64,000 nucleotides of DNA, taken from positions 96,907-160,906 of the forward strand of contig CAWHWW010000021.1 of assembly GCA_963833135.1 (NCBI GenBank). The letters run 5' to 3'. The position numbers were made by a program, and so were the translations under genes. The DNA comes from an uncultured cyanobacterium. Its GTDB lineage: Bacteria > Acidobacteriota > Vicinamibacteria > Vicinamibacterales > UBA2999. The notes below the pieces were generated by a model that was not told the origin of the DNA, made no database searches, and was given only the letters and a program-made list of their open reading frames with translations. Positions 3,863 to 35,886 of this stretch are shown here, piece after piece (position 1 is the first letter of the stretch; every line of letters begins with the position of its first letter).

Positions 3863-5767
3863 GTTGGTTTGACCTCAAATATCGCGACGGGCCGACTCTT
3901 GCCCTTCACGACGACGTCGCCGAGGGGATGGATATCATAACGCCCTTTGAGCCCGGCGCGGGTCGCCTCGCTGATGATGATCCGCGTTCCGTAGTCCTTG
4001 TTCAAGCGACTCCAGCCGGGCGCCGAGATTCACGGCATCGCCAATCACGGTGTAGCTCATGATCGTCTCCGAGCCGACGTTGCCGGCGATCATGTCGCCG
4101 GTATTGATGCCGATGCCGATGTCGAGCTGCGGCTTGCCTTCGCGCGCCCACTCCGCGTTCATCTCGTTCAGCGTCCCGATCATCGCCAGCGCCGTCTGCA
4201 CCGCATGCTCGGCATGATCCTCGTCGTCGAGCGGCGCCCCGTAGAGCGCCATGATCATGTCGCCGACGAACTTATCGACCGTGCCGCGATGCTGGAACAC
4301 GACCGCGACCATTCGCGTGAACAGCTGATTCAGCTGGGCCACCACGTCTTCAGGCGTGCCCTTCTCCGACATCGTCGTGAAGCCGCGAATGTCGGAGAAC
4401 AGCACCGTCATGTGGCGCCGCGCGCCGCCGAGGGCGGCAAGCGACGGATTGGCGACGAGCTGCTCGTAGACGTCCTTCGAGACGTAGCGGGAGAACAGCT
4501 TCTTGATCTGCCGCTTCTCGCGCCCCTCGACGAAGTACTTCCAGGCGAGGTCGCCGACGAAGGCAAAGACGAGCGCCAGCGCGGGAACGGTGAGCGGAAT
4601 CCAGGAGCCGCGCGCGAAGATTGCCAGCGACTGCCAGACGAGGATCGCCGCGGCAACGAGCGCGACCACACCGGTGAGCCACGCATTCAGGAACGCACCG
4701 GCCACGCCGACGACCGCGACCGCGCCGATCACGAGGCCGAGCGTCGTCCATCCGGGCGCGCGCGCGATCGATCGATTCGACAGGAACGCATCGACGAGAT
4801 TGGCGTGCACTTCCGGGCCGTTGATCTCGCCCTGCGGGAACGGCGTGGTGAACTCCTCGTTCAATCCTTCGGCGGTGCCGCCGACGATGACGATGCGATC
4901 CTTGAAGAGCGCGGGATCGATGCCAGGCTTCTGCCCTTCCAGGATCTGCTGCTGCGAATAGAAGACGTCGTAGAACGAGTACGACGTGAAGGTCGGCTGG
5001 CCGTTGCTGTTCTCGGCCGGACCCCGCCACGGAATCATGATCGTGCAGTTGCCGGCTTCGTCGATGCCGCGCGTTCAGCGCCGGCATGGTATTCGCCGCA
5101 GTCGCGGTCGCGACCGAAAACGACCGGATCGCGCGATCGCCGACCTGCACGATTGGCGACGAGGCGACGCACGGCGCCGTTCGAGTCGATGGTGAATAAC
5201 GAGTGTCCGATGCCGCGTGACACGCCGGCGAGCGCCGGAAAGGGCGGCGTCACGCGCGGGCGGGGCTCGACACAGCCGTCAGCCGGCAATGCGCAGGTTG
5301 AGCGCAGGCGCATCGAGGTCCTCCTTCAGCGCCCGCGACGGATCGGCCAGTTCGGCGCTCGAGGTTTCGGCGATGTGCACGACGTTGCCGGCCTTCTTCG
5401 TGGACTCAACGAGCGCCGCGTCCGACTCATCCCCGGTCCACTCGGTGTCGGCGACCATGAACTTGCGCATGTCGCGTTCGGCGAACAGCACGTCGTAGCC
5501 GATGACCTTCGCGCCGGCGGCCGACAGGTAATCGATCACGGTTGCGTGAATCAGCCGCGGCCACGGCCATCGCCCGACCAGCGGCTCCATCCGGCGCACG
5601 CTCTCGTTGTCGATGGCGACGAGGACGATGTTGGCTGCCGGAGCGGACGGGCGCGCCGTCGCGGCGACGCGAAGGTCGTAGGTCTGCAGCTCGATGTTCT
5701 GAATGAAGTCGAGGAGCCCGAGGGCGCCGGCCAGGACGGCTGCGGCGAGGGGAATGGCTCTCTGCAT
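3859..5767 (-). CDS. CHASE2-sensor class III adenylate/guanylate cyclase (frameshifted as sequenced)
   Basis: CHASE2-like N-terminus in ORF 5279..5767. TM block and cyclase core 'VLFSDIRGFTTMSE..FVGDMIMALYGAP..GINTGDMIAGNVGS' in ORF 3935..5038. The C-terminus '..VVVKGKSRPVAIFEVKPT*', read by hand in another frame, ends at 3859, and its TGA overlaps the M48 ATG. Confidence 0.85.
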
Positions 5768-5773
5768 CAGCCC

Positions 5774-8700
5774 TCAGAAACTGAGGCGAACGCCGAGCTG
5801 CATCTCGCGCGGATTCTTCGCGCTGAAAATGCGTCCGAAGTTGGCCGTGCCGAAAATGCGGTTGGGCAGGTCAAAATTGGTTCGGTTGAACAAGTTGAAA
5901 ACCTCCCACCGCAACTCGAGATCGGAGACCCCGCCAATGCGCCAGATCTTGGCGAGCGCGAAATCGACGTTGGCAAAACCAGGTCCGCGAACGCTGTTTC
6001 GTGGTGCGCTCCCGAAAGAAAACGCCGCCGGCAAGGCGAACGCCGCGGGATCGAACCAGCGGTCAGGCGTGCGTTCGGCGCCAGAAAGATTTGGATCACG
6101 AAGCTGATCCGGCCGCTGTGCGGGCCCCGCGCCTACGTTGGCGCGATCGACGCCCAGATTCACGGTAAAGGGGGCGCCGCTCTGGGCGACCAGAATTGCG
6201 TTCACGCGCCAGCCCCCGAAGATCGATTCGATCACGCCGCCAACATCGCTGAGGAGCGGGAACTGGTAGGCGGCGCCGGCAACGAATTGATGCCGGTGAT
6301 CGAAACTCGACCGCGCCCATTCACCGGTCGTGTCAAAGATGTTGCGCACGTTCTGCGGCACGTTCGCTTCCGATTCCGTCGGTCCGGGGCTTGACGCATC
6401 GTCTGTGGATTGCGAGAGCGTGTAGCTGACATTGAAGGCGTGGTTGCCGCTGAACCTGCGCTCGGCTTTGAGCGTCAGGCCGTGATAGATGGACTTGCCG
6501 TCGAAGCGGATGGCGTTGATGCGGCTCAATTGCGGAATCGGGCGCCGCGGCTGAATCGCGCCGGGGCCCGGCTCGGGCACATTGTGGATGGTCGCGTTGT
6601 CAGCGCCGAGCGTCCAGGTGCCCATGTAGACCGCCTCGATCATCGTTGATGGGCGGAGTTGATACTGCAGACCGCCGCTCCAGGTCTGGCTGTATTCAAC
6701 GTTGTATTCGTAATCCATGATGCTGCCACCGATGGTGCCGGTGGCCTGGCTGGTGAGGATGTCGCGCGTTTGCAGCTCTGGCGCGCGCTGCCCGGCCGGC
6801 ACATCCACCTGCCTGGTGAAAAAGAACGGCAGGTTGCGAGCAAACGCCGTTTGCACGCTGTAGGCCCACTGGTTGAGGAAAATGCCGTAGCCGCCGCGAA
6901 TCACCGCACGTGCGTCGTCGAGAGTCAGGGCAAAGCCGAGCCGCGGCGCCAGGCGGACGTTGCTGGGATCCAGCAAACCCCGGCCCCACCCGGCGTCCTT
7001 CGAGGTGACATATGGAATGGGTATCAGCGGCAGAAGCGCCTGCGCCTCGGCATGCATCTCGCCGTCGTCATCACTCGCAATGACGAACCGCCCACCCGCT
7101 GTGGCCAGATCAATCGACGACAGACGGTTGCCCGCATCGTACATGTGCTGATTGAGTTCGTATCGCAGGCCGATGTTGAAGGTGAGATTGCTGCGTGCCT
7201 GCCAATCATCCTGCGCGTAGAGGTGCAGCCAGTTCGTGCGGCCATCTTCGTCGCCGCGGCCGACTCCAGACGTTGCCGAGGTCGGATAGCCAAGAAGGAA
7301 GTCGGCAAAAGCATTGCCGGTGAACTGACCCGTGAAGGCGAAATTGCCGCGTGCGTTATCAGGTTGCTCGGGCCGCAACTTCAGATGAAAGAAGTAGCCG
7401 CCAAACTTGAGGCGGTGCGCGCCGCGATCGACGGTCAGGTTCTCGTACAACTCGAAGTGGTGATTGTTCCTCGTCGTGAACACGGTGGGATCGCCCATGG
7501 TCGAATACAGACCGGCGGTGGAAATCTGCGGATAGCCGACGTCGCGAGGATCGGTCGTGACGCCGAGCAACCCAACCGCGGCGGCGAAGTCGATGCCGCG
7601 GTTCAGGCTCAACTGGCCGCCCGACACACCCATCCAACCGAATCGCAGTTCGTTCAATACCGAATTGCCGATCACTCGGGTGTGGCTGGCGACGAGATTC
7701 CTGGTGCGAGTGGTCAGCTGCCGTCCAAAGCCCGGGACCAGAGACTCTTGCAGCACTCCAGTGCCGTAAGGCTGTAACTCGTCGGCGTCAAAGGTGCTGA
7801 ATCGCGCCAACAGGTTGTCGTTCTGCGCGAGCCGATGATCGAGGCGAACGCTGAATTGATCGAGATTGCGCGTCGTCTCTTCGACTGCCGACAGGTTCTG
7901 GGACGCCGTGGCTGCGGTCGGCAGCGGCACCTGCTGCAGAAATGCCGACGCGATCGGATCGATACGGCCGGACGGAATCTGGTTGTTGGCAAACGGAGTG
8001 CAGGTTCCCGTTGAAGAAATCGTCGACGGATCGCAGATGGCGCCCACGGTCGAGAAATCTCCGAGGCGCATCGCCGCCGGAGGGACGGTGAACGTGCGGG
8101 TCACCGAGCGGCGGAGCCGAGTGCCTTCGTAACTGCCGAAGAAGAACGCGCGGCTCTGCACGATCGGGCCGCCAAGAGCGCCACCGAACTGGTTCTGGCG
8201 AAGCGGCGGCTTTGGCTGGCCAGCCGGGTGGAAATAGTTCGCGGCATCGAAGGCGTCGTTGCGATGAAACTCGAACCCGCTGCCGTGAAACTGGTTCGCG
8301 CCCGCTCTGGTCGACACGTTGATAAGCGCCGACGCTTTCCCGCCAAATTCAGCCGGATACATCGACTTCTGGATCCTGAACTCCTCGATTGAGTCGATGC
8401 GAAGGATTGATGACCAGGTTGTTGAATAGTTCATCGGTCACCTTCGCGCCGTCGAGCAGGTAGATGTTGTGGCCCGAGCGCTGGCCGCCGATATTCGGCA
8501 ACGGCCCTGCCTGCTGGAGCGCTTCACCACGCGTGCCGCCAGGAGGAATAACCACGGAATCGCTCAGCTGTGCGAGCGCGAGGAAGTTGCGTCCGTTCAG
8601 CGGCAGTTGGATCACCTCCCGGTTCTCGATCACGTCGCTGATCTCGGCGCTGCTGGTCTGCAGCATCGGCACGCGAACTTCGACCGTGACTTGCTCGGCC

Positions 8701-14264: not shown

Positions 14265-16718
14265 TTACCTGTAGAGCAGATACTTCGCTCGCAGCCGGCG
14301 CCAGCGGGCTTCGTCCGCACTCCAACGCGCCGCCACCGCCGCGGGATCTTCCCCGCGCTTGACGCGTTCCAACGGATCCGCCGTCCCAAACAATCGCCAC
14401 GTCGTCGAGAAATCGTACTTCTCCCCGAACATCGACGAGAGCGCCGCCGCGATCTCGAGTCCGACGCGCACGGGCGGCAGCGAGGCTCGACTCGTGATCA
14501 CCATGAACACGCCCTGGCATTCTTCGTTCGCGTACTTGCTCGACTTCGGCGTGAAGGTGATCGGATAGAAGCGAATGCCCGGCAGCTTCCTCGCGTTGAG
14601 CGCAGCCGAGAGCCGCGGCCCGTCGATCCACGGCGCGCCGAAGTGTTCGAACGGCTGATCGGTGCCGCGGCCGACCGAGACGTTCGAGTACTCGATCGCG
14701 CCGATGCCCGGATAGAGCGTCGCCTGGTTGAGGTTGCGCATGTTCGGCGAGGGATTGATCCACGCCAGGCCGGTATCGTCGTACCAATAATCGCGCTTCC
14801 AGTTTTCCATGCCGATCACCGTCAAGTCCGCATTGATCTTCCGCTCGTCGTTGTACAACCTCGCCAGCTCGCCCATCGTCATACCGTGCCGGACCGGCAT
14901 CGGCATGTAGCCGATGAACGTGTTCGGCGATTCTCCCGGACCAGGCTCGCGCGACAGCGGCCCTTCGATCTGCCAGCCGTTAATCGGATTCGGACGATCG
15001 AGCACGACCACCGCGAGACGCCGCTTCGCGGCTTCTTCCATCGCGTAGCCCATCGCGAGCTGGTAGGTGTAGAAGCGGACGCCGACGTCCTGGAGGTCGA
15101 TTACCAGCGCGTCGATGCCGTCGAGAGAACCTTCACGCGGCCGGCCGGTGCCGCCCTTGTAGAACAGCGAGTGGATCGGCAGACCGGTACGGGCGTCCTT
15201 TTCGGCCGGGACATCCGCATCGAGCACGCCGCGGATCCCGTGCTCGGGACTGAAGAGCGACACGAGTGTCACGCCCGGCGCCGAGTGCAACAGATCGATC
15301 GTCGATTGTCCTTCTCTCGATCGGCCGGTATGGTTGGTGATCAATCCGATTTTTTTGCCGCGAAGCTGCTTGAATCCATCGCGCGCGAGGACATCGATTC
15401 CGGCAAGGACGGGTGGTGTCGGGCTTGAGCCGGATTGGAGCCTGGCAGCGGGATCAATCTGCCTAAAGGCAGACACCACCCGCGCGCCATCTGATGTCAA
15501 AGCCGCTGCCGCCACCGTCGCGATCCTGCTGCGTAACACCCCGACGTCGCCCGTGCCGTCTGGATGCAGGCGACTCGATAAGAAGATCACGTACGAGTTC
15601 GACGCCGGATCGATCCACAAGCTCGTTCCGGTGAATCCCGTATGGCCGTACGACGTCCCCGCCGGAAACAGGTCGCCGCGGTTGCTCGAATACGACGTGT
15701 CGATATCCCAGCCAAGACCACGAACGCTCGTCATGCCCGCGGGGGTTTGCGGCGACGTCATGGCCGTCACCGTTGCCGCCGACAGCACACGCAGTCCTCC
15801 TTCGCGCGATGCGCTTCGGAGGACAGGGGTTCCGAGCCGGCCTCTCCCCAGCAGCATTTGCGCGAATCGCTGGAGATCGCGCGCGGTGCTGAAGAGGCCT
15901 GCATGACCGGCGATGCCGCCCATTCGCCGCGCGGTTGGATCGTGAACGACGCCACGTAGCGGCATCGCATCGGGGCGCTTGCAGGGCCATGCGTCCTGCT
16001 CCGCGCATCGCTCGGTCGGCGCGATCCGCGGCAGCAAGGACTTCGGTGGCAGGAACCCGGTCTCCGTCATGCCGAGCGGCTCGAAGACGCGCGCTTTCAG
16101 ATACGCATCGAGCGTCTGGCCGGTGATGCGCTGGACGATGTCACCGAGCAGAAAGAAGTTGATGTCGCTGTAGACGAATGCCTCGCCGGGAGCGGATGCC
16201 GGCACTTCATCCTTCGCGAGCTCGATTGCCGCGTCGTAACCGGTCCACGGATGCAGATCGACATCGGGTCGTAACCCTGAGACATGGGTCAATAAATGGC
16301 GAACCTGGATGCCGCCTTTTCCGTAACGCTCGAACCCCGGGATGTGTGATGCGACCGCGTCGTTGAGACGCAGCCGCCCCTCCTCGACAAGCGTCATTAC
16401 TGCGGTGGTCGTCGCGACCACCTTGGTCAGCGAAGCGAGATCGAAGACCGTATCAAGAGTCATCGGCTCTTCCGCGGGCACCGTGGCGCGCAAGCCGAAC
16501 GCCTTCTCATAAACCGTTTGATCGCCGCGTCCGACGACGACAACCGCGCCGGGGGTGAGCCTGGCCGCCATCGCTTCCCGAACGAGCTCGTCGATTCGAT
16601 TGAACTGCGGGTTGGCTTGGCGCGCAATTGCGGGAATCTGGCCTGGAAGAGCGAAAACAAGAATTCCCCAAGCCGCAAGTCCCAAGCCCCAAGACCCTGG
16701 TTTTGGCGTCAATCGCAT
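14265..16718 (-). CDS. serine hydrolase (beta-lactamase family) fused to a DUF1343 / NamZ-like exo-muramidase domain
   Basis: Intact ORF 14265..16817. Likely start is the ATG at 16718 ('MRLTPKPGSWGLGLAAWGILVFAL', a signal-anchor). SxxK motif 'ASLTKVV'. C-terminal half is DUF1343-like: 'GLITNHTGR..SLFSPEHG..VIDLQDVGVRFYTY'. Confidence 0.8.
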   Translation of the reverse strand: MRLTPKPGSWGLGLAAWGILVFALPGQIPAIARQANPQFNRIDELVREAMAARLTPGAVVVVGRGDQTVYEKAFGLRATVPAEEPMTLDTVFDLASLTKVVATTTAVMTLVEEGRLRLNDAVASHIPGFERYGKGGIQVRHLLTHVSGLRPDVDLHPWTGYDAAIELAKDEVPASAPGEAFVYSDINFFLLGDIVQRITGQTLDAYLKARVFEPLGMTETGFLPPKSLLPRIAPTERCAEQDAWPCKRPDAMPLRGVVHDPTARRMGGIAGHAGLFSTARDLQRFAQMLLGRGRLGTPVLRSASREGGLRVLSAATVTAMTSPQTPAGMTSVRGLGWDIDTSYSSNRGDLFPAGTSYGHTGFTGTSLWIDPASNSYVIFLSSRLHPDGTGDVGVLRSRIATVAAAALTSDGARVVSAFRQIDPAARLQSGSSPTPPVLAGIDVLARDGFKQLRGKKIGLITNHTGRSREGQSTIDLLHSAPGVTLVSLFSPEHGIRGVLDADVPAEKDARTGLPIHSLFYKGGTGRPREGSLDGIDALVIDLQDVGVRFYTYQLAMGYAMEEAAKRRLAVVVLDRPNPINGWQIEGPLSREPGPGESPNTFIGYMPMPVRHGMTMGELARLYNDERKINADLTVIGMENWKRDYWYDDTGLAWINPSPNMRNLNQATLYPGIGAIEYSNVSVGRGTDQPFEHFGAPWIDGPRLSAALNARKLPGIRFYPITFTPKSSKYANEECQGVFMVITSRASLPPVRVGLEIAAALSSMFGEKYDFSTTWRLFGTADPLERVKRGEDPAAVAARWSADEARWRRLRAKYLLYR
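16667..16696. repeat. 30-nt word element (CCCCAAGCC type), left partner of an inverted pair
   Basis: Its reverse complement matches 19961-19990 at 29 of 30 positions. It lies inside codons ~8-17 of the hydrolase-NamZ gene. Confidence 0.9.
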
Positions 16719-17798: not shown

Positions 17799-20069
17799 TT
17801 ACTTCCGTTTTTCCGCCTCCGCAATGAGCTGATTGATGTTCGGGTAAGAAGGCTCGATCGATCGGGCCTTCTTCCACATCTCCAGCGCCTCGGGAAACTT
17901 TCCTTCCCTCGCCAGCAGCACGCCCTTCACGACCCACGGAAACGCGTAATTCGGCTCGACGGCGGTCGCCTTGTTCAAGGCATCGCGCGCGACGACGGTG
18001 TTGCCGCGCTCGGCTTCGAGCCAGCCCTTGGCGGCGTGATTCGAGGCCGCGTCCGGGAACATGTCGAGACTGACGATGTACTCGTCCTGCGCCTTCTTCA
18101 GCACCTCGCCTGCCTGTCCAGGCAATTCGACGATGCCGAAACTCACGAGCACCTCGGCTGCCTTGACGCGCACGACGCGGGCTTCGTCGCCGAGTCGCGC
18201 CACGATGGGCATGAGCGATCGTTCCCTGTCGCCGATCGATCCGAGAGACGCGATCGCGGAGGCGCGGACCGCGGGCTCGGGGTCAGACGCGGCGCCAATG
18301 AGAGCGTTCACGATGGCCGGGGTCACTTCTGGGGCCGTTCGACGGACGTTCTCCGATCGTTCTACGGTCGTTCTACGATCGTCGGTTCCAGGCGCAGTCG
18401 GCCGTAGAACGTTCGTAGAACCTGTCGTAGAACCATCGTCGAACGACGTCTGTGTTGGCGAACTGGCGCTCGTCGTGCCGCCAGAGCGCCATTCAGAAAC
18501 CAGCCGTCCAATGTAGTCAGCGGCGCTCGCGCGAACCAGGAAGCCCTGCGATCGATCGACCGCCAGCTTCGCCAGCGCCGGGCAGCGTCGTCGCATCGCC
18601 CGAACCGGCGCGATACATGGTGTCGGCGAGCGACACCGCCTGCGCGCGGCGTTCGCCGTCGCCCCACCACGCCGTCATCTGCTTCGCCGCCCACTCGGGC
18701 GTTCGATCGTCGTGACAGGTCGTGCACGCGTTCGGGATACCGAACTGCGCGGTGTTCTCCGGCACCGGCGGCTGGAACGTGTGATCGCGACGGCGAATCA
18801 GCAGCCGCCAGTTCACGTCGCTCATGTGGCAGCCGATGCAGCGCGATCCGGCAGAGTCGGGGGCATGAAACGTGTGGGCTTCCAAGCCGGCGCCAGTAAA
18901 CGACGGCTTGAGGTTCGCCGGGTTCCCGGTTCCCGGTTCCCGGCACGTCGGCGCCGAGTGGCATTGCGTGCAGAGCCCGTCGCCGTTGCGGCCCTGGTTG
19001 ATGTTCACCTTCAGCGAGAACTCGTTGCGCGATCCGTGAGCGACGTGGCAGTTCGTGCATGCGATCGCGCCGGCCTTGAAGCAGCCGCTGAGCGTCAACG
19101 CCTGCGGGCGGTTGAAGCGATTCGGGCGGCCGTCGGGCCAGAATTCGCCCTGCAGATCGTTCTCGGGAAGCGGATCGCTGATGAGGAACGGCGTCGCGTA
19201 ATCAGAATAGTGATCGCCGCCCTTGAAGCCGACGAAAACGTTGCGCTTGTTGCCGTGGCAGTAGGCGCAGGTGTCGTAGATCCGCCGCGGCTGCGAGCTC
19301 TTCACCGACAAGATCTTGAGGATGTCGCTCAGCTGGCGGTTCTTCGAGCTGTTGTCGTACTTCGGCTTCGATGCCGGATCCTTCTCCCACGCGTCCATCA
19401 ACGCAACATGCTGGCGGCCAGGCCCATGACACGCTTCGCAGCCGATGCCCATCTCGCGTCCACGTCGACTTGTACTTTCTCTCGGCGACGTCGTAGCCCT
19501 GGACGAGGTTGGTGCCGTGGCAGTTGAAACAGTTGGAATTCCAGATCTGACGGAACTGGTGCGCGCCTTCCGGTACCGACGTGATCTCCTTCCAGTCGAT
19601 CCAGCGCTTCGTGCCGACATGCCAGAACACCGGCAGCACGTAGATTCGTCCGTCGGGCAGCGTCGACAGATAGCCCTGATATCGCTTGGCACCGAGCGTG
19701 TAGTCGACGGTGAAGGTTTCCGGCGCGCGATCGCCGAAGGCAATCGACAACGGACGGCTTGCCGTCCTTCGTGCCGAACGTGTACGCGCGATCGTGATCG
19801 GCGAACTTCGTCCCTTCGCGGAAGTCACCAATCACGGTGGCTTCCGCGATCGGCTTGGTCATCTTGATGTGCAGCGAGTTCTTCCACTGCGTGTGCTCGA
19901 CGTCGTGACACTTCGCGCAGGCGGCGGATCCCAGATACTCGCTGTTAACCTGCGTGGGAAGGTCTTGGGGCTTGGGACTTGGGGCTTGGGACTGCTCGTT
20001 GGCGCGGACGGCCAGCGTCAGCAGCAAGAGCAAGAGCGCCGCGCTTACCAGGCTCGCACCGCGGGTCAT
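17799..20069 (-). CDS. octahaem c-type cytochrome fused to HEAT/TPR repeats (frameshifted as sequenced)
   Basis: Colinear pieces are ORFs 19398..20132, 19202..19831, 18517..19743 and 17799..18596. Eight CxxCH motifs: CAKCH, CFNCH, CEACH, CAYCH, CTNCH, CTQCH, CIGCH, CTTCH. Best start is the ATG at 20069 ('MTRGASLVSAALLLLLLTLAVRA'). Confidence 0.8.
18336..18448. repeat. word-repeat palindrome (CGTTCTACG words) inside a coding region
   Basis: Arms 18336-18385 and 18399-18448 are imperfectly complementary. The element is read in frame as the linker 'SSPTQTSFDDGSTTGSTNVLRPTAPGTDDRRTTVERSENVRR' of ORF 17799..18596. Confidence 0.85.
19961..19990. repeat. 30-nt word element (GGGGCTTGG type), right partner of an inverted pair
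   Basis: 'ggtcttggggcttgggacttggggcttggg'. Encodes 'SQAPSPKPQDLP' just after the cytochrome signal peptide. Confidence 0.9.
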
Positions 20070-20071
20070 CA

Positions 20072-20088
20072 GGTGGATATTATCCACC
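20072..20088. promoter_or_regulatory. perfect 8+1+8 palindrome GGTGGATA-T-TATCCACC, 2 nt upstream of the cytochrome ATG
   Basis: Seen directly in the sequence. The AT-rich centre is unusual in this GC-rich context. It could be an operator or a translation-masking hairpin. Confidence 0.3.
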
Positions 20089-20146
20089 TTCGCTCGCGTG
20101 CGTTCCTTCGAGCTTCGGTGGATTGCCCGCATGAGCCTTTCGCGGG

Positions 20147-20177
20147 CAAAAATAAAGGGGCCCTAATCCTGGGCCCC
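20147..20177 (-). terminator. rho-independent terminator (minus strand)
   Basis: Minus strand reads GGGGCCC-AGGATTA-GGGCCCC followed by TTTATTTTT. Confidence 0.7.
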
Positions 20178-20446
20178 TCGAGCCAGCGGCCTAGTCAGCC
20201 TGGCTCAAAACTTCCACCTTCGCCTAACGAGTGGGCTACGGTGGACAGGTAAGTTGACTCCTGTGGGGTCAGTCCCCCAACACCAATCGGCTTCGGCGGG
20301 ACAAGCCAACTTCTCGTCTCTCTACGAGCAAGCGACGTGCCGGAATTGCACAGGGAAATACGGCTGCGGTTTTGGCCCGTTTTCAATTGTCCGATCTCAC
20401 AGACGCTGGGAATCCAATCGGTTGAAAACGGGGACTTCGGATTCTT
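20178..20446 (-). ncRNA. candidate structured leader or ncRNA of unknown family
   Basis: ~270 nt with no credible ORF. Contains an 11-bp perfect stem (CCCGTTTTCAA...TTGAAAACGGG) and several further local hairpins. Ends at the 20147-20177 terminator. Confidence 0.25.
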
Positions 20447-21070
20447 GGTTCCACGGTTCCGCAGTTCCAGGGTTCCACGGTTAGGTTCTGTTGGGTTATG
20501 GGTTCTTCTTCGGACGCGGCGGATCGGGCGTTGATTCCAGATGCTGAATCAGACCAGCCGCGGCCTTAAGCGCCTCCGCGAATGTAGTGTTCCTCGAGAA
20601 GCAATTCGTCCTCAGTGAGCAGTCGTCGATCTCTTGCGTCGACGAGGTGATTCAACACCTCAGTGTTCGGAACCTCGCGCGATTCGAACAAAGCGCGCGA
20701 ATTCCTTGTTGCCGAAGCGGCCAAATCCCTCCGCGATGTTTGCCGGAGCAGACCGAGCCGCCTCGCGCAACTGCTCGCACAGTCTGAAGTCGCGTTTCAC
20801 GTTCGGCCGTTCCAGGAGCATATACACGCGCAGCTTCACCGATTCCGCGCGTTGCCCGCGACGATCTCCCGGAAGTCCTTCCATCCAGCCATGTCGTTGA
20901 ATGAAAGCAACAGCGAAGCCGCGAATAGACTCGCCAATTCCCGAGAGAAATGAGGGACCGATGATCTCGGTCGTTCAAAAATTGCGATGCAAGCTGCGTC
21001 ACTGGTGCGCACATCTTGCGAACATTGAACCCGGCAGAACCAAACCGTGGAACTGTGGAACCGTGGAACC
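20447..21070. mobile_element. rRNA-IVS-like cassette: four-helix-bundle gene bracketed by ~40-nt inverted word repeats (GGTTCCACG)
   Basis: The reverse complement of 20447-20490 aligns with 21035-21070: 'cagaacc[t/a]aaccgtggaac...ggaaccgtggaacc', with one word fewer on the right. Confidence 0.5.
20496..20892 (-). CDS. four-helix-bundle protein (23S rRNA intervening-sequence protein family; frameshifted)
   Basis: 'MAGWKDFREIVA..', then 'QRAESVKLRVYMLLE..LCEQLREAARSAPANIAEGFGRFGNKEFARFVRIARGS' (ORF 20660..20884), then 'EVLNHLVDARDRRLLTEDELLLEEHY' and '..LIQHLESTPDPPRPKKNP*' in other frames. Confidence 0.75.
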
Positions 21071-21077
21071 CGGCACC

Positions 21078-21821
21078 TTAGAGCCGTGACCTGATCTCCC
21101 ACAGATCCGGAAAAATCGGCGTCATCAGCGTCGTCGCCAGATACTGGGCGCCGGCGGAGCCGCCGGTCCCGGCTTTCGCGCCGATCGTGCGCTGCACCAT
21201 CTTGACGTGACGATAGCGCCACTCCTGCAGGCCTTCGTCGAGATCGACGAGGCGCTCGCACATTTCGGCGTGCTTGGGATCGCGGCGATACAGATCGATC
21301 AGCGTCGATTGCAAGTCCGCCGACGGCTCGATGCGCGCGGTGACGTCGCGCGACAGCGACGCCGCCGGAATCGCATAGCCTTCGCGCGACAGATACGTGA
21401 GGAACGCATCCCATAACGTCGCCGCTCCGTATCGCTGCTCGAGCGCCCGGCGCGCACGCGAGGCTGCGGGAAAGCGATCGATCGCGGCCTTGGACTTGTT
21501 GCCGAGCACGAACTCGAGCTGCCGGAATTGATCGGATTGAAATCCGCTCGCCGCCTCGAGCCGTGCCCGGAACGACTGGAACTCGAGCGGCGTCATCGTC
21601 TCGAGGATGTCGAGCTGCGCGACCAGCACTTTGAGGATGGTGAGGATCCGCTTCAACGAATGCTGCGCGCGATACGGATCGCGCGCCTCGAGCAGCGCGA
21701 TGACGTGATCGACTTCGTGCAGCACCTGCTTGAACCACAGCTCGTAGACCTGGTGAATGACGATGAAGAGCATCTCGTCGTGCTCGGGGCCTTCGGAGCG
21801 AGGGCGCTGGAGCGCGAGCAA
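21078..21821 (-). CDS. kynA: tryptophan 2,3-dioxygenase, apparently 5'-truncated
   Basis: Track ORF 21078..21821: 'HDEMLFIVIHQVYELWFKQ..RYRHVKMVQRTIGAKAGTGGSAG'. An in-frame stop lies only 9 codons upstream of the TTG start, so the conserved N-terminal segment is missing. Confidence 0.85.
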   Translation of the reverse strand: MLALQRPRSEGPEHDEMLFIVIHQVYELWFKQVLHEVDHVIALLEARDPYRAQHSLKRILTILKVLVAQLDILETMTPLEFQSFRARLEAASGFQSDQFRQLEFVLGNKSKAAIDRFPAASRARRALEQRYGAATLWDAFLTYLSREGYAIPAASLSRDVTARIEPSADLQSTLIDLYRRDPKHAEMCERLVDLDEGLQEWRYRHVKMVQRTIGAKAGTGGSAGAQYLATTLMTPIFPDLWEIRSRL

Positions 21822-21837
21822 TTCGTCGACGGCGGTA

Positions 21838-22051
21838 TGGAACGCTTATCTGAAATAACTGCGCGCCGAGGCTACGCGATTCCGCCGGGCTCGCTATCGC
21901 GTGACGTGACCGCGCGCATCGAGCCGTCGCGCGACGCTGCAGGCGATCCTGATGCGATCCTTCGCGAAGGGCTCCAAAGGACGCCGAGATGTGCGAGCGG
22001 CTCGTCGATCTCAACGAGGCAATCCAGGAGTGGCGCGACCGGCACGTCTAG
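21838..22051 (+). pseudogene. inverted, diverged internal fragment of a second kynA copy
   Basis: Plus strand encodes 'WNAYLK*LRAEGYAIPPGSLSRDVTARIEPSRD ... PKDAEMCERLVDLNEAIQEWRDRHV*' across shifted frames. This parallels residues '..REGYAIPAASLSRDVTARIEPSAD..PKHAEMCERLVDLDEGLQEWRYRHV' of the minus-strand gene at roughly 80% nucleotide identity by eye. Confidence 0.7.
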
Positions 22052-22084
22052 AGAATATCTCGATCGAACACCAGACCAGAACTA

Positions 22085-22149
22085 GCACCTGGCACCTGGC
22101 ACCGGCACCCCTGCACCCTTGCACCCCTGCACCCCTGCACCCCTGCACC
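22085..22149. repeat. word-repeat array (GGCACCT then CTGCACCC words)
   Basis: 'gcacctggcacctggcaccggcacccctgcacccttgcacccctgcacccctgcacccctgcacc'. Confidence 0.9.
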
Positions 22150-22270: not shown

Positions 22271-22477
22271 GTGTTACAGCTGCTGCTGTTGCTGGTGCTG
22301 CTGCTGGGACTGCTGCGAGAGACAGATAGACGGGCAGGTCGAGGTGCTGGGGAACAGCGTCCGCGTTTCCTTCAATGCGATGAGTGCGCCCGTCTTCATG
22401 CTGGAGCAGAAAGTATCAGGCGATTCGCCGCTAATGCAATAGATGAGCGACGAGCATTATCGGTAACCTGTTCTTGA
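22271..22477 (+). CDS. possible small single-pass membrane protein (68 aa), poly-Leu N-terminus encoded by an imperfect (CTG)n tract
   Basis: GTG at 22271 lies 7 nt after a perfect Shine-Dalgarno AAGGAGGA (22257-22264). Product: 'MLQLLLLLVLLLGLLRETDRR..QCDEC..'. A competing minus-strand 41-aa ORF (22274..22399, 'MKTGALIALKETRTLFPSTSTCPSICLSQQSQQQHQQQQQL') overlaps it. Confidence 0.3.
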   Translation: MLQLLLLLVLLLGLLRETDRRAGRGAGEQRPRFLQCDECARLHAGAESIRRFAANAIDERRALSVTCS

Positions 22478-22489
22478 GTTCCGTAACTT

Positions 22490-22530
22490 CAAAAAAAATG
22501 GGCGAGGACGCCGGCGTAGCGTCACCACCC
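22490..22530 (-). terminator. rho-independent terminator after TonB receptor 2 (minus strand)
   Basis: Minus strand reads GGGTGGTGACGC..GGCGTCCTCGCCC (12-bp stem with G-U pairs and one mismatch) followed by ATTTTTTTT. Confidence 0.7.
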
Positions 22531-22566
22531 TAACGACTCCCCCACAGGAGTCGAGCTCGGTCTTAC

Positions 22567-25457
22567 TTAGAAGAGGAAGCGGAATCCGACGCGCGCGGTG
22601 CGCGGCGCCAGGATCAGCGTCGGCTTCTGGTAGCTCAGACCCGTCGCGCGGCCGATCGTCTCGGACGCGTGGCTGTTGGTCAGGTTGAACGCGTCGAACA
22701 TCAGGCGCAGACGAACGCGCGGCGTGAAGGTCAACTGCTTCTCGGCGCGAATGTCGAAGACGTAGATGTTGTCTTCGCGGTTCGTCATCGGTCGCATCGG
22801 CATAGGCCGTGGTGGTGCGCGTGTCGCGCCCACCAGGCCGGCCGGCGCCGTGATGGTCAGCGTGCGCGCGTAGTTCGCGCCCGACTGGTGGCGGAACACC
22901 GGCGAGAGGCGGATGCCCCACGGCGCGTCGTACGACGCCGTCGCCTTGAAGCCCCAGCCCGTGCGATCGCCCACACCCGGGTTGTTCGGGGTGTATTGCG
23001 GCGCGCCGGCGAAGAAGTCGTGCAGCATCGTGTAAGCGCCGCCGAACGACGCCGACCACTTGTTCGCAGTAGCGGCGGTTCACCGACGCCTCGATCGTCT
23101 TGTAGCGTGCGAACTGATCGACGTTCTGCTGCCGGTTCGCGCGGTCGAGCGTGTTGAAGGTCGCCGTCGGGAACGCCGTAGAACGTCAGGGTGCGATCGT
23201 CCGCGGTGCCCGAGCGGCCGTCGACGCCGATGTCGAGGAACGGGTAGGGCGTGGTGAAGCGCTCGGGGCCCGCTCCGGGCTGGAACGTCCCGATCAGATC
23301 GTCCTCGGTCTTGTAGACGAAGCCGGCACGCACACCCATCGTGTCGCTCAGCTGCTGCTCGAACCACGCGCCGAATTCATGCGTGTAGGGATCCTTGATG
23401 TTCGGGTCAAGGCCGGTCGTGCCTTCGAGGTCGGCGGTGGCGAACGCCGCAGCCTGTTCACCCGGCTGCCAGCGGCGGTCGCCGTTGAGGTCCGTCCAGG
23501 TGTAGGTCGCCGACTTGTTGGCGGTGTTCGGGTTCGCGTTGCCGCTGATGCCGACACCCGGGTTGTGCCAGTAGAGGCCGTAGTTGGCCTTCACCACCGT
23601 CTTGCCGGTGCCCGACAGGTCATAGACGACGCCGATGCGCGGCGCGAACGAGTTCCACGTGTAGAGGTCGCGCTGTGCGAAGGTCTTCGCCTGCACCTGC
23701 GAGGCCAGAGCCGGGAAGCTCGCGGCCCAGCCGGCAGCGTTCCCGCCATCTGGTCCTGCTCCGGCAGCCAGCCCTTGTAGCGGTCATAGCGCACGCCGGC
23801 GTTCATCGACAGCTTGCCAACCGACCACGTGTCGGTCAGGAACAGTCCGATCGCATCGAGCGCCGCCTGCGCCTTCAGGCAGTCGTGCGCGGCGAGCGTG
23901 CCGACCGCGCAATCCGCCGTCGGGAAGCCGAAGATCACCTGCGTCGCGGCGCCGTTGTTGAAGCGGTGCTCGAGGTTGCTCGTAGCCGCCGCGGCGCGAT
24001 TCGAAGCCTTCCCACGAACGCTCCTTCAGGAGTTCCGCACCCATCTTGAAGGTGTGGCTGCCCTTCGACGTGTCCATGAAGTAGGTGCTCGCGAAGTTGT
24101 ACTGCTTGCGATCGCGATCGAGCTGCTGCTTCTGGTGCGCGCCTTCCATCACCAGTCGGCCGGTGTCCTGCGTGAAGAAGTTGTCGGGGCTGTTGGTGCT
24201 CAGCGGGAAGTAGTAGCCGAAGTCGCCGTAGCGCGCTTCGAGATAGAGCTTGTCGCTGATCGTGCCGTTCCACTCAGCCTTGTAGACCCAGCTGCCCGAG
24301 AGCTGCGCCAGGGTCTGTTCGGGCGAGGCGTAGGTGTAGGTCGCGTCCGGCAGGCGGTTCGGCTGTTCCTTCTGGCCCCACTGGTAGTAGCCGATCAGCT
24401 TGTTCTTCTGGTTCATCTGATAGCTGACCTTGCCGACCGCGTTCCACAGCAGCGTGTCGAAGGTCTTGTCGAACTGGAAGCTCGGCTGCGCCACCGCGTT
24501 GAACTGCTTGCGGTAGGTGCCGAAGAACCACAGCTTGTCTTTCGCGATCGGACCGCCGGCATTGATGTCGTGGTCGTAGTAGCGATCGATCTCGTTGCTG
24601 TGCTCGCGGATCGGCGAGTTGTTGAACGCGGTCGGCACGAGGTACTCGTCCGGCAGGTTCGAGCCCTGGAACGCGTTGTTGTACCAATCGAGGTGATATT
24701 CGCCCTGGAAGGTGTTCGAGCCCGAGCGCGCGATGAACTGCGACTGCACGCCGGGGTTCGGCATTTCCGCCGACTGGCCGCTCGTGCCGAGGAACGCTTC
24801 TTCGAGCGACGCGTAGTCGAAGTAGAAGCCGGCGCCGCCGGTGCCTTCGGTGGTGTTGATGCCTTCGATCAGCACGCGCACCTGGCCGGTCTGGCCGTAG
24901 GCGGCGTAGCCCTGCTGCGTGCCGGCGCGGTTGCCGCCGACGTCGACGCGGTTCATCGCCACGCCGGGCGTGACGGCGAGCAGCGCCCACATGTCGCGGC
25001 CGTTCGGGATCGACTGCAGCTGCTCCATCTTGAAGTTCTGCTGCACGCGCGACGAGGACGTGTCGATGACCGGCGAGGCGCCGCTGACGGTCACGGTTTC
25101 CTGCAGCGTGGCGAGCGCGAGCTCGACGTTGACGTTGGCCGTGAAGCCGAGGGAGATGGCGATGCCTTCGCGCTTCAGCGTGTTGAAGCCGGCAAGCTCG
25201 AATGTCATTTCATAGGTGCCCGGAGGCACTGCCGGGAAACGGTAGTTGCCCGTTTCCGACGTGACCGTCGTCTGCGCGCCAAGCGCCGACGGGCTGGTCG
25301 CGGTCACCGTGACGCCAGGCAGCACCGCACCCTGCGAGTCCGCCACGCGACCCTGAATCGTGCCCGTGCTGCTGGCGCCGCCACCCTGCGCAAACGCGTT
25401 GCCCGCGAATGCGATGGTGACGAGGAGGGCCAGCAGGCCCTTCGTCCAAAACTTCAT
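22567..25457 (-). CDS. TonB-dependent receptor 2 with carboxypeptidase-regulatory-like N-terminus (frameshifted)
   Basis: Colinear pieces are ORFs 23784..25523, 23591..23938, 22857..23696 and 22567..23028. Start is the ATG at 25457 after 'ggaggaagatcgc' ('MKFWTKGLLALLVTIAFAGNAFAQ'). Barrel terminus is '..RVGFRFLF'. Confidence 0.85.
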
Positions 25458-25659
25458 GCGATCTTCCTCCATTGGGGGCAACCCGCCCGTGATCTGCACC
25501 TGCGCAAACCACAAGCCGGTCACTCAAATCAAATCACCCGACCTGTCCGCCATACCTAGCGACGGCGAACCAACGACGACGAATCGATCAGCGACACTCG
25601 GCGGAAGACGGCCGAACCCGATGTGGGAGAGGCAGGAAACCCGACAAGACGCCGCAATC

Positions 25660-27582: not shown

Positions 27583-27948
27583 TCAAGCGTTCCAGGGTTC
27601 CAGGAGTTCCAGAAGTTCCACGGTTTGGTCCAGGAGTTCCAGACGTTCCAGATGTTCCACGGGTGGTTCAGAACACGGTACCTGACAGAACTCAACCCTT
27701 GGAACCCCTGGAACCACTGGAACCCTGGAACGATCTTTATCGGCGAGCTGCATGACCCGATAGACATTGAGGACACCGGCGGCAAGTCCGAGAAAAAACC
27801 CGACGAACGCGAGCCAGGGCTTCGTGCCGAGCGCCCCGTCCAGCCAATAACCCGCGGCAAAGCCGATCACCAGCGCAAACACGAACGACAAGCCGATCGT
27901 GCTGAGCTGCCCGATGAGCTGCAACGTCGTCGGGGATGTCCGCTCCAT
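27583..27948 (-). CDS. AtpZ/AtpI-family protein (3' end uncertain; the ORF tail runs through a repeat)
   Basis: 'LQLIGQLSTIGLSFVFALVIGFAAGYWLDGALGTKPWLAFVGFFLGLAAGVLNVYR'. The last ~50 codons are translation of the 27589-27731 word palindrome. Confidence 0.6.
   Translation of the reverse strand: MERTSPTTLQLIGQLSTIGLSFVFALVIGFAAGYWLDGALGTKPWLAFVGFFLGLAAGVLNVYRVMQLADKDRSRVPVVPGVPRVEFCQVPCSEPPVEHLERLELLDQTVELLELLEPWNA
27589..27731. repeat. word-repeat palindrome (GTTCCAGG words)
   Basis: The left arm (27589-27662) has 8 variant GTTCCAG/GTTCCAC words. The right arm (27697-27731) has complementary CTGGAAC words. Confidence 0.9.
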
Positions 27949-31248: not shown

Positions 31249-31339
31249 GGTGCGTACGGTGCGTACGTGCGTACGGTGCGTACCGTGCGTAGAGTGCCGC
31301 GCGCTTAGGCACATCACGCACAGTACGCACGGTACGCAC
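31249..31339. repeat. word-repeat palindrome (GTGCGTAC words)
   Basis: Left arm 31249-31298 and right arm 31306-31339 surround the loop 'gcgcgc'. The element abuts the ATG at 31341. Confidence 0.9.
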
Positions 31340-31340
31340 T

Positions 31341-33056
31341 ATGGAGCGTGCCTCCGTGGCCTGTTCGTGGCGATGCTTGCGATCTTTGCGGCTGCGTGTC
31401 AGAACGACGCCGCCGAGGGTGACGGCTCCGTCCTACGACGTGGTGATCACGAACGCGCAGATCGTCGACGGTAGCGGCGGGGCGCCGCGCACAGGATCGA
31501 TCGCGATCGCCGGCGGCAAGATCGCCGCGGTCGGCGAAGTCACCGGCTCCGGCGCGCGCACCATCGATGCCAAGGGCCGCACCGTTGCGCCGGGCTTCAT
31601 CGACCTGCACAGCCACTCCGACATGCCCCTCGTCACCGACGGCAACGGGCAGAGCAAGATCAGGCAGGGCGTGACCACGGAAGTGATCGGCGAGTCGGGA
31701 TCGATCGCACCGCGGAAGGCGGCGTCGGAAACGCAGCCCTGGACGGATTTCGACGGCTACTTCGCGGCACTGCAGAAGAACGGCATCTCGCCGAATCTGC
31801 TGTCGTACATCGGCACCGGCACCGTGCGGGAGATCGTCATCGGCGACGACGACAAGAAAGCTACCGCCAAGGACATTGCCGGCATGCAACAGATCGTGTC
31901 GTCGATGATGGGCCAGGGAGTCTTTGGCATCTCGTCAGGCTTGATCTATCCGCCTAACGCGTTCGCGACGGTCGCAGAGCTCGGTGAAGTCGCGAAGGCC
32001 GCTAAGGGCGGGTTGTACGCGTCGCACCTGCGCTACGACGGACTGAAGCTTCGCGACGGCATCGAGGAAGCGATCGCGATCGGCGAGCGCGGCGGCATAC
32101 CGGTCCACATCTTCCACATCAAGGTTACCGGGCAGAAAAATTTCGGCCGCATGAAGGAAGTGATCGAGATCGTCGAGGCGGCGAGGGCGCGCGGCATTCG
32201 TGTCACCGCCGATCAGTATCCCTACGTCGCCAGCAGCACCAGCCTGACCGCGACCATTCCGCCGTGGGCCCAGGACGGCGGCAACGCCAGGTTGATCGAG
32301 CGCCTGAAGAACAAGCCGGAGCGGGCCCGCATCCGCAAGGAGATGGAAAACACCAATCCGGCGTGGGAGAGCCGCTATCAGTCGGCCGGCACGTGGCAGA
32401 ACGTGCAGCTCGCCGCGATCGGGCGGACCCGCGGCGGCACCAACGACCGGGTGTCGCCGAACCGCAAGTACGAAGGGATGCGCGTTGCGGAGGCGGCGAA
32501 ACAGGCCGGCAAGGACCCGTTCGACTTCGTCTTCGATCTGCTGATCGAGGAGCGCGCGTCGGTGGGCTGCGTCTACTTCATCATCGATGAAGCGGACCTT
32601 GCGCTGGCGATGAAGCAGCCGTGGGTGGCCGTCGGCTCGGATGGATCGTCACTCGCGGTCGAGGGTCCGCTTCGCGCCGGCGTGCCCCACCCCCGCAACT
32701 TCGGCACGTTTCCGCGTGTGCTCGGCCGCTACGTGCGCGAGCTGAAAGTGATTCCACTCGAAGAGGCGATCCGCAAGATGACGTCGCTGCCGGCCAGCAT
32801 CCTCGGGCTGGCCGATCGCGGCGCGATCAAGGAAGGCCAGTGGGCTGATCTGGTGATCTTCGATCCGGCGACCGTGGCCGACAAGGCGACCTTCGAGGAT
32901 CCGTTTCAGTATCCGGTGGGAATCGACACCGTGCTCGTGAACGGCACGGTGGTGTTGGACGAAGGCAAGCACACCAACGCGCGCCCAGGGAAAGTGCTGA
33001 AGCGGCGCGCGGCACTTAGCACGCGCTTACGTGCGTACAGTGCGTACGTGCAGTGA
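31341..33056 (+). CDS. D-aminoacylase (N-acyl-D-amino-acid deacylase, amidohydrolase superfamily)
   Basis: Track ORF: 'YDVVITNAQIVDGSG..APGFIDLHSHSD'. A signal-peptide-like 'GLFVAMLAIFAAAC' lies in another frame at 31360-31410, so the N-terminus is uncertain. The last ~13 codons are repeat-encoded. Confidence 0.85.
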   Translation: MERASVACSWRCLRSLRLRVRTTPPRVTAPSYDVVITNAQIVDGSGGAPRTGSIAIAGGKIAAVGEVTGSGARTIDAKGRTVAPGFIDLHSHSDMPLVTDGNGQSKIRQGVTTEVIGESGSIAPRKAASETQPWTDFDGYFAALQKNGISPNLLSYIGTGTVREIVIGDDDKKATAKDIAGMQQIVSSMMGQGVFGISSGLIYPPNAFATVAELGEVAKAAKGGLYASHLRYDGLKLRDGIEEAIAIGERGGIPVHIFHIKVTGQKNFGRMKEVIEIVEAARARGIRVTADQYPYVASSTSLTATIPPWAQDGGNARLIERLKNKPERARIRKEMENTNPAWESRYQSAGTWQNVQLAAIGRTRGGTNDRVSPNRKYEGMRVAEAAKQAGKDPFDFVFDLLIEERASVGCVYFIIDEADLALAMKQPWVAVGSDGSSLAVEGPLRAGVPHPRNFGTFPRVLGRYVRELKVIPLEEAIRKMTSLPASILGLADRGAIKEGQWADLVIFDPATVADKATFEDPFQYPVGIDTVLVNGTVVLDEGKHTNARPGKVLKRRAALSTRLRAYSAYVQ

Positions 33057-33122
33057 GGACACGTGCCTTCGTGCCTGGAGTGCACCGTACGCGCATTACG
33101 CACTGTACGCACCGTACGCACT
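33026..33122. repeat. word-repeat palindrome (GTGCGTAC words), second locus
   Basis: Left arm 33026-33053 and right arm 33080-33122. It spans the gap between the stop at 33056 and the rseP stop at 33123. Confidence 0.9.
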
Positions 33123-35640: not shown

Positions 35641-35886
35641 GATCCACAGATTACACGGATTACACCGATGCGCAGTCGACCCGTCCGCCGGGCTTCGCCC
35701 GGCAACGGACAGGTCATGCGGTGGCGGATGAAAGACCACTGCAGCGATACGGCAGAACTCAGCTGTCTTTCATCCGCCGCCGCATGGCCTGTCCACGCCG
35801 ACCGAAGGTCGGCGCGGGTCGACTTGCAGCTCTGTACGCGCATCGCGTTCGTCGAATCCGTGTAATCCGTGTAATCCGTGGATGAC
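35641..35886. mobile_element. MITE-like structured element, copy 1 (TIRs ATCCACRGATTACACGGATTACAC; ~185-nt multi-hairpin core)
   Basis: The left end (35641-35667) matches the reverse complement of the right end (35853-35886) at ~27/30. In the core, 'tgcggtggcggatgaaagac' pairs with 'gtctttcatccgccgccgca', and there are local hairpins ccggg-cttcg-cccgg and cgccgacc-gaa-ggtcggcg. It fills the whole cdsA-dxr gap. Confidence 0.55.

Follow-up and report, generated by a model that had tools for sequence, protein, structure and literature searches.

To our knowledge, no function is known for PF05635, a very large protein family whose members go by the names '23S rRNA intervening sequence protein', 'S23 ribosomal protein' and 'four helix bundle protein'. 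We know only of piecemeal discussions of the family, in which its members figure as passengers of rRNA intervening sequences (IVSs), as Avd, a DGR factor, or as putative CRISPR-associated genes, and we are aware of no description of Avd genes as stem-flanked. The 23S rRNA IVSs that carry an ORF occur in Coxiella burnetii and in Leptospira. Two kinds of mobile DNA also resemble the locus described here. In foldback elements, the terminal inverted repeats consist of tandem sub-repeats. A REPtron is a small gene (RAYT, a Y1-transposase) enclosed by a repeat in inverted orientation, and further copies of this repeat are scattered through the genome without a gene.

The 23S IVS of Coxiella is 428-444 nt long and has a 28-bp terminal stem with an S23p (PF05635) ORF in its loop. 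Its 5′ arm carries 2-4 tandem GACAGAT heptamers, whose number varies among strains, and RNase III cuts the IVS at the start of the first of these heptamers (PMC4990558). PF05635 is homologous to the DGR protein Avd (PMC10053308), and 23S_rRNA_IVP appears among the cas-associated genes of two studies (PMC3936711, PMC10910872). Tandem heptamers have also been described in intergenic DNA. The STRR sequences of cyanobacteria are tandem heptamer arrays that form hairpins of unknown function (PMC2670836), and each Xanthomonas genome carries 70-75 convergent inverted pairs of GGGAATC arrays (PMC4692102). The supplement of the latter study records an array located 6 nt from bccP that overlaps the start of XCC0516, which was scored as having no inverted partner, and the authors draw no connection between this array and the gene family. 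In the literature on STRR and heptamer repeats, we found no link to PF05635.

The locus downstream of kynA

The window, which here means the whole 64-kb stretch of DNA that was analysed, contains only one four-helix-bundle (4HB) gene. This gene lies on the minus strand (20496-20892, with the ATG at 20892-20890 and the stop at 20498-20496) and matches PF05635 with an E-value of 1.8e-20 (73.6 bits, against a Pfam cut-off of 33.8). It also matches TIGR02436 (E = 2e-19), for which the orthologue P0002 scores 69.8 against an NCBIfam cut-off of 24. Directly upstream and in the same orientation is kynA (21078-21821, minus strand), which codes for tryptophan 2,3-dioxygenase (PF03301, E = 3e-60), and the window neighbours further include a cytochrome gene and a TonB-type receptor gene. 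As a first-pass annotation of this DNA had noted, the unit abuts kynA. The gap between the stop codon (21078-21080) and the end of the first arm (21070-21072) is 5-7 nt, against 8 nt in that annotation. The same annotation had set the gene outside rRNA, and no rRNA was found in the window with Rfam. The flanks are kynA on one side and a conserved non-rRNA element on the other, rather than the two strands of an rRNA helix.

The conserved RNA-like element (20150-20440, minus strand) ends in an intrinsic terminator at 20179-20155. In relatives that lack the cassette, this element follows directly after the kynA stop codon, and it therefore marks the insertion site. The terminator is the only one found on the minus strand downstream of kynA, and it is located beyond the cassette. 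We searched positions 20100-21200, including the cassette interior, for a sigma-70-like promoter and found none. With the sole terminator lying beyond the cassette and no promoter inside it, read-through from kynA is plausible. At gathering and E-value thresholds, no Rfam family was found to match the arms or the downstream element.

The 4HB gene is bracketed by two arms that carry tandem copies of an 8-nt word, GGTTCCAC(G), which is read on the plus strand at 20447-20482 and as its reverse complement at 21043-21070. In the sense of the gene, the 5′ arm (21028-21072, minus strand) consists of 3.5 tandem GGTTCCAC(G/A) words (21043-21070) and an inner complementary segment, GGTTTGGTTCTGCCGGGTT (21028-21042). 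The 3′ arm (20447-20497, minus strand) has 4.5 tandem word copies (20447-20482) and an inner segment (20483-20497) that overlaps the last ORF codons and the stop. A long pairing joins 20455-20497 with 21028-21070 (43 nt, 84% complementary, 530 nt apart), and a short pairing joins 20447-20474 with 21043-21070 (28 nt, 93% complementary). These coordinates bear out the earlier description of inverted arms around the gene, with one word missing from one of them. Terminal inverted repeats thus enclose the whole element, as they do in an IVS. The arms also have the features of STRR-type repeats, in that they form a convergent inverted pair of tandem words, here of 8 nt, in intergenic DNA.

Pairing of the arms is far better than that of shuffled controls. 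The arm alignment scores 51, whereas the maximum among shuffles is 26, and the 14-mer GGTTCCACGGTTCC occurs nine times in the window with at most two mismatches, compared to an expectation of 0.4. In the predicted fold of a 661-nt minus-strand RNA, the arms are paired in both the MFE and the centroid structures (z = -4.75), which would place the whole unit in the loop of a long stem, as had been proposed. The predicted energy of the arm duplex is -66 kcal/mol for the sense strand and -76 kcal/mol for the antisense strand. Between the 5′ arm and the ATG lies a spacer of 135 nt (20893-21027, minus strand), in which only short blocks are conserved among orthologous cassettes (TTCTGA, and GGTTGCTT about 10 nt before the ATG). 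In order, the parts are a G-rich array of an 8-nt word specific to the locus, a short spacer, the PF05635 ORF, and the complementary word array. We consider it probable that this region of ~0.63 kb represents a self-contained stem-loop gene cassette, of the IVS type and situated at a protein-coding locus, whose RNA would pair through its arms and be released by RNase III.

The observations of the first-pass annotation on the 4HB gene, its arms, kynA and the non-rRNA setting stand, but the gene that it described is not intact. An alignment with intact orthologues reveals that the ORF is split over three frames by three 1-nt indels inside 283 nt (a missing T at ~20857/20856, an additional C at ~20665 and an additional G at ~20574). 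Intact orthologues of 136 amino acids are present in metagenomes and share 81-84% identity with the window copy. This subfamily is tightly conserved, with dN/dS values of 0.11-0.14 among orthologues, which indicates that the protein is functional in relatives. The substitution pattern in the aligned sequences shows that it is under purifying selection there.

The broken frame might mean that the window cassette is a decaying relic, in which the ORF is a pseudogene and the stem alone, if anything, still matters, as has been proposed for Coxiella. Three indels within 283 nt next to an unbroken kynA ORF of 744 nt would fit such decay, as would the loss by rearrangement of an adjoining B-type cassette in the window (described below) and the reported decay of the Coxiella S23p ORF (PMC4990558). 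However, a multihaem cytochrome gene (17799-20132) and the TonB-type receptor gene (22457-25523) in the window are likewise frame-split, and the syntenic contig L001 has frameshifts elsewhere, so an assembly indel error is an equally good explanation. The intact state of the orthologues and the selection acting on them also speak against decay. We regard a relic as a serious possibility whose chances fall a little short of even.

Word repeats are abundant in the rest of the window, where 22 arrays with a period of 7-11 were counted against 0-1 in simulated sequence, along with many gene-less inverted pairs. Ordinary genes, namely an amidohydrolase gene and a cytochrome gene, likewise lie between matched arrays, so that word arms also occur away from 4HB genes. 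The dispersed hairpins mostly use other words, and only one of them (27588-27732, unstranded), which has GTTCCAGG words and a 65-nt loop, matches the cassette arms. It aligns with the joined arms, including their inner non-word segments, with a score of 63 against a shuffle maximum of 26, and on this alignment it is a gene-less relative of the cassette. In addition, a remnant of a B-type 4HB cassette is located at 22052-22149 on the plus strand. Its last 10 codons (EYLDRTPDQN, followed by the stop) and its distal TGCACCC-type word arm are retained, and the rest has been replaced by an inverted kynA fragment (21826-22052).

Cassettes across the PF05635 family

The layout seen in the window recurs at ~45 of the 46 non-redundant 4HB genes sampled, which come from five phyla and are bracketed by inverted arrays of a locus-specific word of 7-10 nt. 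The sample comprises Vicinamibacterales-like metagenome loci, plasmids (from cyanobacteria, Bacteroidota and Gemmatimonadota), IMG/VR contigs, and XCC0516 of Xanthomonas. The control set, which consists of the flanks of 56 kynA genes in genomes of this kind, scores 14-32, compared to 38-93 for nearly all cassettes. The window layout is therefore no local accident, and the first-pass reading, which had looked to other 4HB paralogues for flanking inverted repeats, gains from this result. No rRNA was found in 20 other cassette loci.

Orthologous cassettes that follow kynA (L001-L006 and L023) have the same GGTTCCACG-type arm word in differing copy numbers. In L001-L006, where the gene order is kynA and then the 4HB gene, the arms are 38-60 nt long and the loops 510-601 nt. 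A second, B-type 4HB gene is found upstream of kynA on the opposite strand in L001 and L003. This gene is 44% identical to the first, and another word, GGTGCAGGG, makes up the arms on either side of it (59 nt and 92% complementary in L003). The A-type paralogues (L007-L012) derive from MAG contigs assigned mostly to Vicinamibacterales/Acidobacteriota, and carry arms of GGTTCCAAGG or GGTGCCAGG words in three other gene contexts. A scan of genome contigs for 4HB peptides, with highly specific peptide patterns, yielded seven loci.

More distant homologues have the same organization. In PLSDB plasmids, each of the eight that were found (26-40% identity) lies between inverted arrays whose word is 7-8 nt long. 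Their hosts are Gemmatirosa, Calothrix, Nostoc, Geminocystis, Riemerella, Picosynechococcus, Pseudanabaena and Anabaena, and the words listed are GGGCAGGA, GGGTGTA, GGGAACA, GGGAAAA, GGTTCAA, AGGAGATA, GCTTTTA and AGGTGAC. Three Nostoc operon copies of the 4HB cassette use the word CAGGAGT. Word-type arms are also present at 20 of 20 IMG/VR loci, with loops of 374-509 nt, and loops across the entire survey span 374-616 nt. XCC0516 is the crystal-structure archetype of the family (PDB 2GSC, the sole PDB sequence match). Its Xanthomonas orthologues are located between accB and accC, and inverted GGGAATC heptamer arrays fill the stop-to-ATG gaps.

The 4HB gene shares its orientation with every annotated neighbour of the plasmid and Xanthomonas cassettes. 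The sites occupied in annotated records are cas10/cmr3, cas6/cas4, parA/parB, traM/next gene and accB/accC, and the 5′ arm in such records usually starts 0-8 nt beyond the upstream stop codon. On the other side, 0-10 nt usually separate the 3′ arm from the next ATG, and overlap between this arm and the end of the 4HB ORF is common. As far as sequence can tell, the survey shows that the cassette architecture is a family-wide trait of PF05635 genes, and the region downstream of kynA looks like one example of a widespread self-contained gene cassette. The main addition made here is that the word-arm architecture is general for these genes and links them to tandem-word hairpins. Among open full-text papers, we found none that presents inverted repeats of tandem words around PF05635 genes as characteristic of the family.

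The word varies between loci, and the two arms of one locus share the same word. Comparison of the loci shows that the arms evolve in concert, and the shared word could reflect either covariation or concerted evolution. Among cassettes with dissimilar outer flanks, protein similarity predicts arm-word similarity (Spearman rho 0.28, p = 1e-14), where the flank filter uses DNA similarity and misses some diverged orthologous contexts. The median arm similarity is 0.33 for protein pairs with at least 55% identity and 0.15 for pairs with less than 40%. For example, the cassette next to traM in Nostoc and that at parA/parB in Geminocystis (L096 versus L097) are 72% identical and have the words GGGAACA and GGGAAAA, respectively. 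By these measures, the comparison shows that arms and gene are inherited and relocated together.

The kynA loci also provide a record of gain and loss. Among 80 such loci that are 72-91% identical to that of the window, only a few carry a 4HB gene. Within the range of 86-91% identity, the cassette is present in L023 and L001-L006 and absent from L015 (91%) and L017 (88%), where the kynA stop runs directly into the equivalent of window positions 20150-20440. The cassette is thus sporadic among close relatives, as is typical of an IVS. All that L020 and L025 have kept is a solo 3′ arm and the coding segment for the C-terminal tail of the protein, which points to the loss of an earlier cassette. 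The aligned loci show that the cassette is gained or lost as a unit, with solo arms and gene-less hairpins as the leftovers.

RNA-level and DNA-level roles of the arms

In the mechanism that we favour, the cassette would be transcribed as part of a kynA read-through transcript. Its arms would then pair into a duplex of 28-43 bp and bring the flanking host RNA together. This duplex would be an RNase III substrate, and its cleavage would free the 4HB message in the manner of an rRNA IVS. A stem of this kind could explain why operons, 3′ UTRs and rRNA helices tolerate the insertion. We infer RNase III processing of the window cassette by analogy with the IVSs. The B-type cassettes and those of L020 and L026 are divergent from kynA and therefore cannot be kynA read-through passengers.

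Two tests looked for a signature of pairing in RNA. Arm duplexes are as stable on the antisense strand as on the sense strand (sense is favoured in 13 of 23, p = 0.84), and arm mismatches on the sense strand have no G:U bias (42, compared to 53 of the A:C type and 94 transversions, p = 0.30). In the absence of both strand asymmetry and G:U bias, these tests cannot support RNA-level selection. Arm complementarity may be kept by a DNA-level process, for example gene conversion or templated copying between arms.

The same two null results would be expected if the cassette were a DNA-level mobile element of the foldback type. The word arrays would then be terminal repeats that form DNA hairpins or cruciforms for movement or copying, the Avd-like protein would possibly be an accessory, and RNA pairing would be a by-product. 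This account has much in common with our best explanation, and the level at which the arms act is the sole difference. It would also accommodate arms that evolve in concert at a locus while the word drifts between loci, arms that travel with the gene into new contexts (L096 versus L097), array copy numbers that vary, and the mixture of variable presence, solo-arm remnants and gene-less derivatives. However, no target-site duplication or direct repeat was seen at 31 cassette junction pairs, and no recombinase was found to accompany the cassettes, whose only ORF is the 4HB gene. The neighbours in L001 have no Pfam match to a transposase, integrase or reverse transcriptase, and PADLOC and PHROG returned no match to a defence or phage family. 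Identical cassettes were not seen at two sites of one genome either; the duplicated plasmid copies in Calothrix and Nostoc lie in duplicated operons and are therefore uninformative on within-genome transposition. The words differ between copies, which makes a sequence-specific enzyme improbable. We give an element that acts through its DNA hairpins a lower but still appreciable probability.

It is very improbable that the 4HB gene merely happens to lie within, or was inserted into, a pre-existing word hairpin (terminator- or REP-like) downstream of kynA: the many arrays and gene-less inverted pairs in the window, the matched arrays around the amidohydrolase and cytochrome genes, and the few arm-like bases that cassette-less relatives retain past the kynA stop would allow for it, but arms of this and other words are found at ~45 of 46 4HB genes in five phyla and at no control gene out of 56, the words of related proteins are related even where their contexts differ, and the empty sites of L015 and L017 have no hairpin. 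Explanations by chance or by a terminator hairpin were rejected on the basis of the survey and the kynA controls. An IVS-type cassette with release from RNA is the reading that we prefer, and the first-pass interpretation as a whole is partly supported.

Comparison with known systems

We tentatively suggest, with rather less than even confidence, that PF05635 word-array cassettes form a single, previously unrecognised class of selfish stem-loop gene cassette that spans phyla. Its members would be the ORF-bearing rRNA IVSs, the reportedly CRISPR-associated '23S_rRNA_IVP' genes, XCC0516 in the accBC operon and the kynA insert. Gene-less heptamer and octamer hairpins (cyanobacterial STRR, the GGGAATC pairs of Xanthomonas and the word hairpins of the source genome) would be derivatives or trans-products, comparable to REPs and RAYTs, and the arms of a cassette would be the target of its own Avd-like protein, for instance during templated copying or retro-mobility.

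If every free-standing member rides the same stem-loop cassette, the presence of an ORF inside rRNA helices would be explained. If this holds for all members, so would the unbroken state of the accB-accC, cas6-cas4 and cmr2-cmr3 operons despite insertion, as well as the origin of tandem heptamer hairpins (STRR, GGGAATC). It would also be a warning against reading 4HB genes as functional partners of their neighbours. The accB-XCC0516-accC arrangement of Xanthomonas would be a tractable test system for RNase III-dependent insulation of an inserted gene.

The DGR accessory protein Avd has a homologous four-helix-bundle fold and belongs to the same family (PMC10053308), and the Avd-like 4HB protein presumably binds nucleic acid. 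Unlike in a DGR, where Avd is accompanied by an adjacent reverse transcriptase and a pair of template and variable repeats, no reverse transcriptase Pfam match is present within 6 kb on either side in the syntenic L001, and no template/variable repeats are nearby.

Terminal inverted repeats made of tandem sub-units are a feature shared with foldback elements, and a small gene between inverted repeats is shared with REPtrons. Unlike foldback elements, MITEs and REPtrons, the cassette combines its inverted repeats with neither a transposase (tyrosine or DDE) nor a target-site duplication, and its word differs per locus. The flanked gene belongs to PF05635 and is not a RAYT.

The resemblance to STRR and heptamer hairpins, including the GGGGATT repeats of Nostoc, lies in the tandem short words that are often arranged as convergent inverted intergenic pairs (PMC4692102, PMC2670836). 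In Xanthomonas, the word of the 4HB cassette is identical to the GGGAATC that occurs across the genome. Those repeats have been described as gene-less, whereas the cassette pair encloses a gene and has a coding loop of 530 nt rather than a short one. The source genome of the window also differs in having its own word at each locus.

The closest counterpart is the ORF-bearing rRNA IVS. The window cassette is located between a protein-coding gene and an RNA-like element, and others are located between operon cistrons, unlike the IVSs in rRNA. The cassette arms are longer and consist almost wholly of tandem words. In contrast to the Coxiella ORF, the cassette protein is under purifying selection in relatives, and excision by RNase III is proposed for the window cassette by analogy with Coxiella. 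In both kinds of element, a long terminal stem carries a PF05635 ORF in its loop, and the sizes are similar (428-444 nt compared to ~0.63 kb). Both are sporadic among close relatives, and the Coxiella IVS likewise carries tandem short words of variable copy number in its 5′ arm. The earlier proposal of an IVS-type element outside rRNA therefore agrees with an anatomy that matches the ORF-bearing 23S IVS of Coxiella and with a layout that is general in the survey.

Conserved and rearranged sequence around kynA

Downstream of kynA lies a conserved, RNA-like element roughly 290 nucleotides long (20150-20440, minus strand), with an intrinsic terminator at its end (20179-20155). The blocks TTTTCAA-N4-TTGGATT, CCGGCACGTCGCTTGCTC, CCCCCACAGGAGTC and TTTGAGCCAGGCTGACTAGGCCGCTGGCTC are invariant in it, and an Rfam search with the element matched no family. 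Relatives that lack the cassette, the four-helix-bundle (4HB) gene between inverted arms of tandem words, have kynA followed directly by this element, and at one compared locus (L021) it lies in the inverted orientation.

Upstream of kynA, positions 21826-22052 hold an inverted, diverged copy of the 3' part of kynA that is 77-87% identical. At the corresponding position, the syntenic contig L001 has a second 4HB cassette with its own word (B-type), together with the first 11 codons of kynA. In the window, all that is left of the B-type cassette within 21826-22149 is the last 10 codons of its 4HB gene (22052-22085, plus strand) and its distal arm of TGCACCC-type words (22085-22149). Several long ORFs in the window are split across frames, including those for a cytochrome (17799-20132) and a TonB-type receptor (22457-25523), which suggests that the assembly carries indel errors here. 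The divergence of the kynA copy speaks against a chimeric assembly at 21826-22149.

Word arrays beyond the 4HB genes

The 64-kb window contains 22 tandem arrays with a period of 7-11 nucleotides, compared with 0-1 in Markov-1 simulated sequence. The majority form inverted pairs, each with a word specific to that pair. Two mutually related nested hairpins of about 240 nucleotides (35642-35883 and 45405-45594) enclose no gene; their outer ends are arrays of CACGGATT-type words and their interiors are composed of further long, imperfect hairpins.

Matched arrays also enclose ordinary genes. Two GTGCGTAC hairpins (31249-31339 and 33028-33121) lie on either side of an intact amidohydrolase ORF of 571 amino acids (31341-33056). 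Similarly, a gene for a multihaem cytochrome/TPR protein is enclosed by CCCCAAG and CTTGGGG arrays (16667-16696 and 19961-19990) that are 97% complementary and 3264 nucleotides apart. The right-hand array falls within the coding sequence, just past the signal peptide, and at the same site L001 carries another word, CACCTCAGG (6863-6952).

Unusual arm arrangements

Some loci have three arrays rather than two: a word array is followed by its complement, the gene and then a second complementary array (L001 4057-4174 plus 4501-5010; L011 2146-2966; L094 845-1406; L100 760-1453). Two pairings are thus open to the first array, one with the nearer partner, giving a short hairpin, and one with the more distant partner, enclosing the gene, and such loci could function as an alternative-pairing switch.

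In low-GC hosts, the upstream words that make up the 5' arms of many cassettes are purine-rich and resemble Shine-Dalgarno (SD) sequences (AGGAG, GGAGG, GAAGG), as at L099, L105, L106, L110 and L123-L125. The downstream arm is then an anti-SD-like complement, and the following host gene often begins right behind it, leaving no space for an SD of its own.

Cassettes in known operons

In two Xanthomonas loci, the XCC0516-type 4HB gene (PDB 2GSC) lies between accB and accC (L126 2430-2872; L129 2487-2926), and inverted GGGAATC heptamer arrays extend from 6 nucleotides past the accB stop codon up to the accC ATG. This is the heptamer that Xanthomonas carries throughout its genome (PMC4692102), and the array adjoining XCC0516 is tabulated in the supplement of that study, where the gene family is unremarked.

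On three cyanobacterial plasmids (L099, L100 and L101), 4HB cassettes reside within cas operons, at the cas10|cmr3 and cas6|cas4 junctions. They have the look of insertions and not of parts of the Cas machinery. Their presence there may be the reason that two surveys counted '23S_rRNA_IVP' among CRISPR-associated genes (PMC3936711, PMC10910872).
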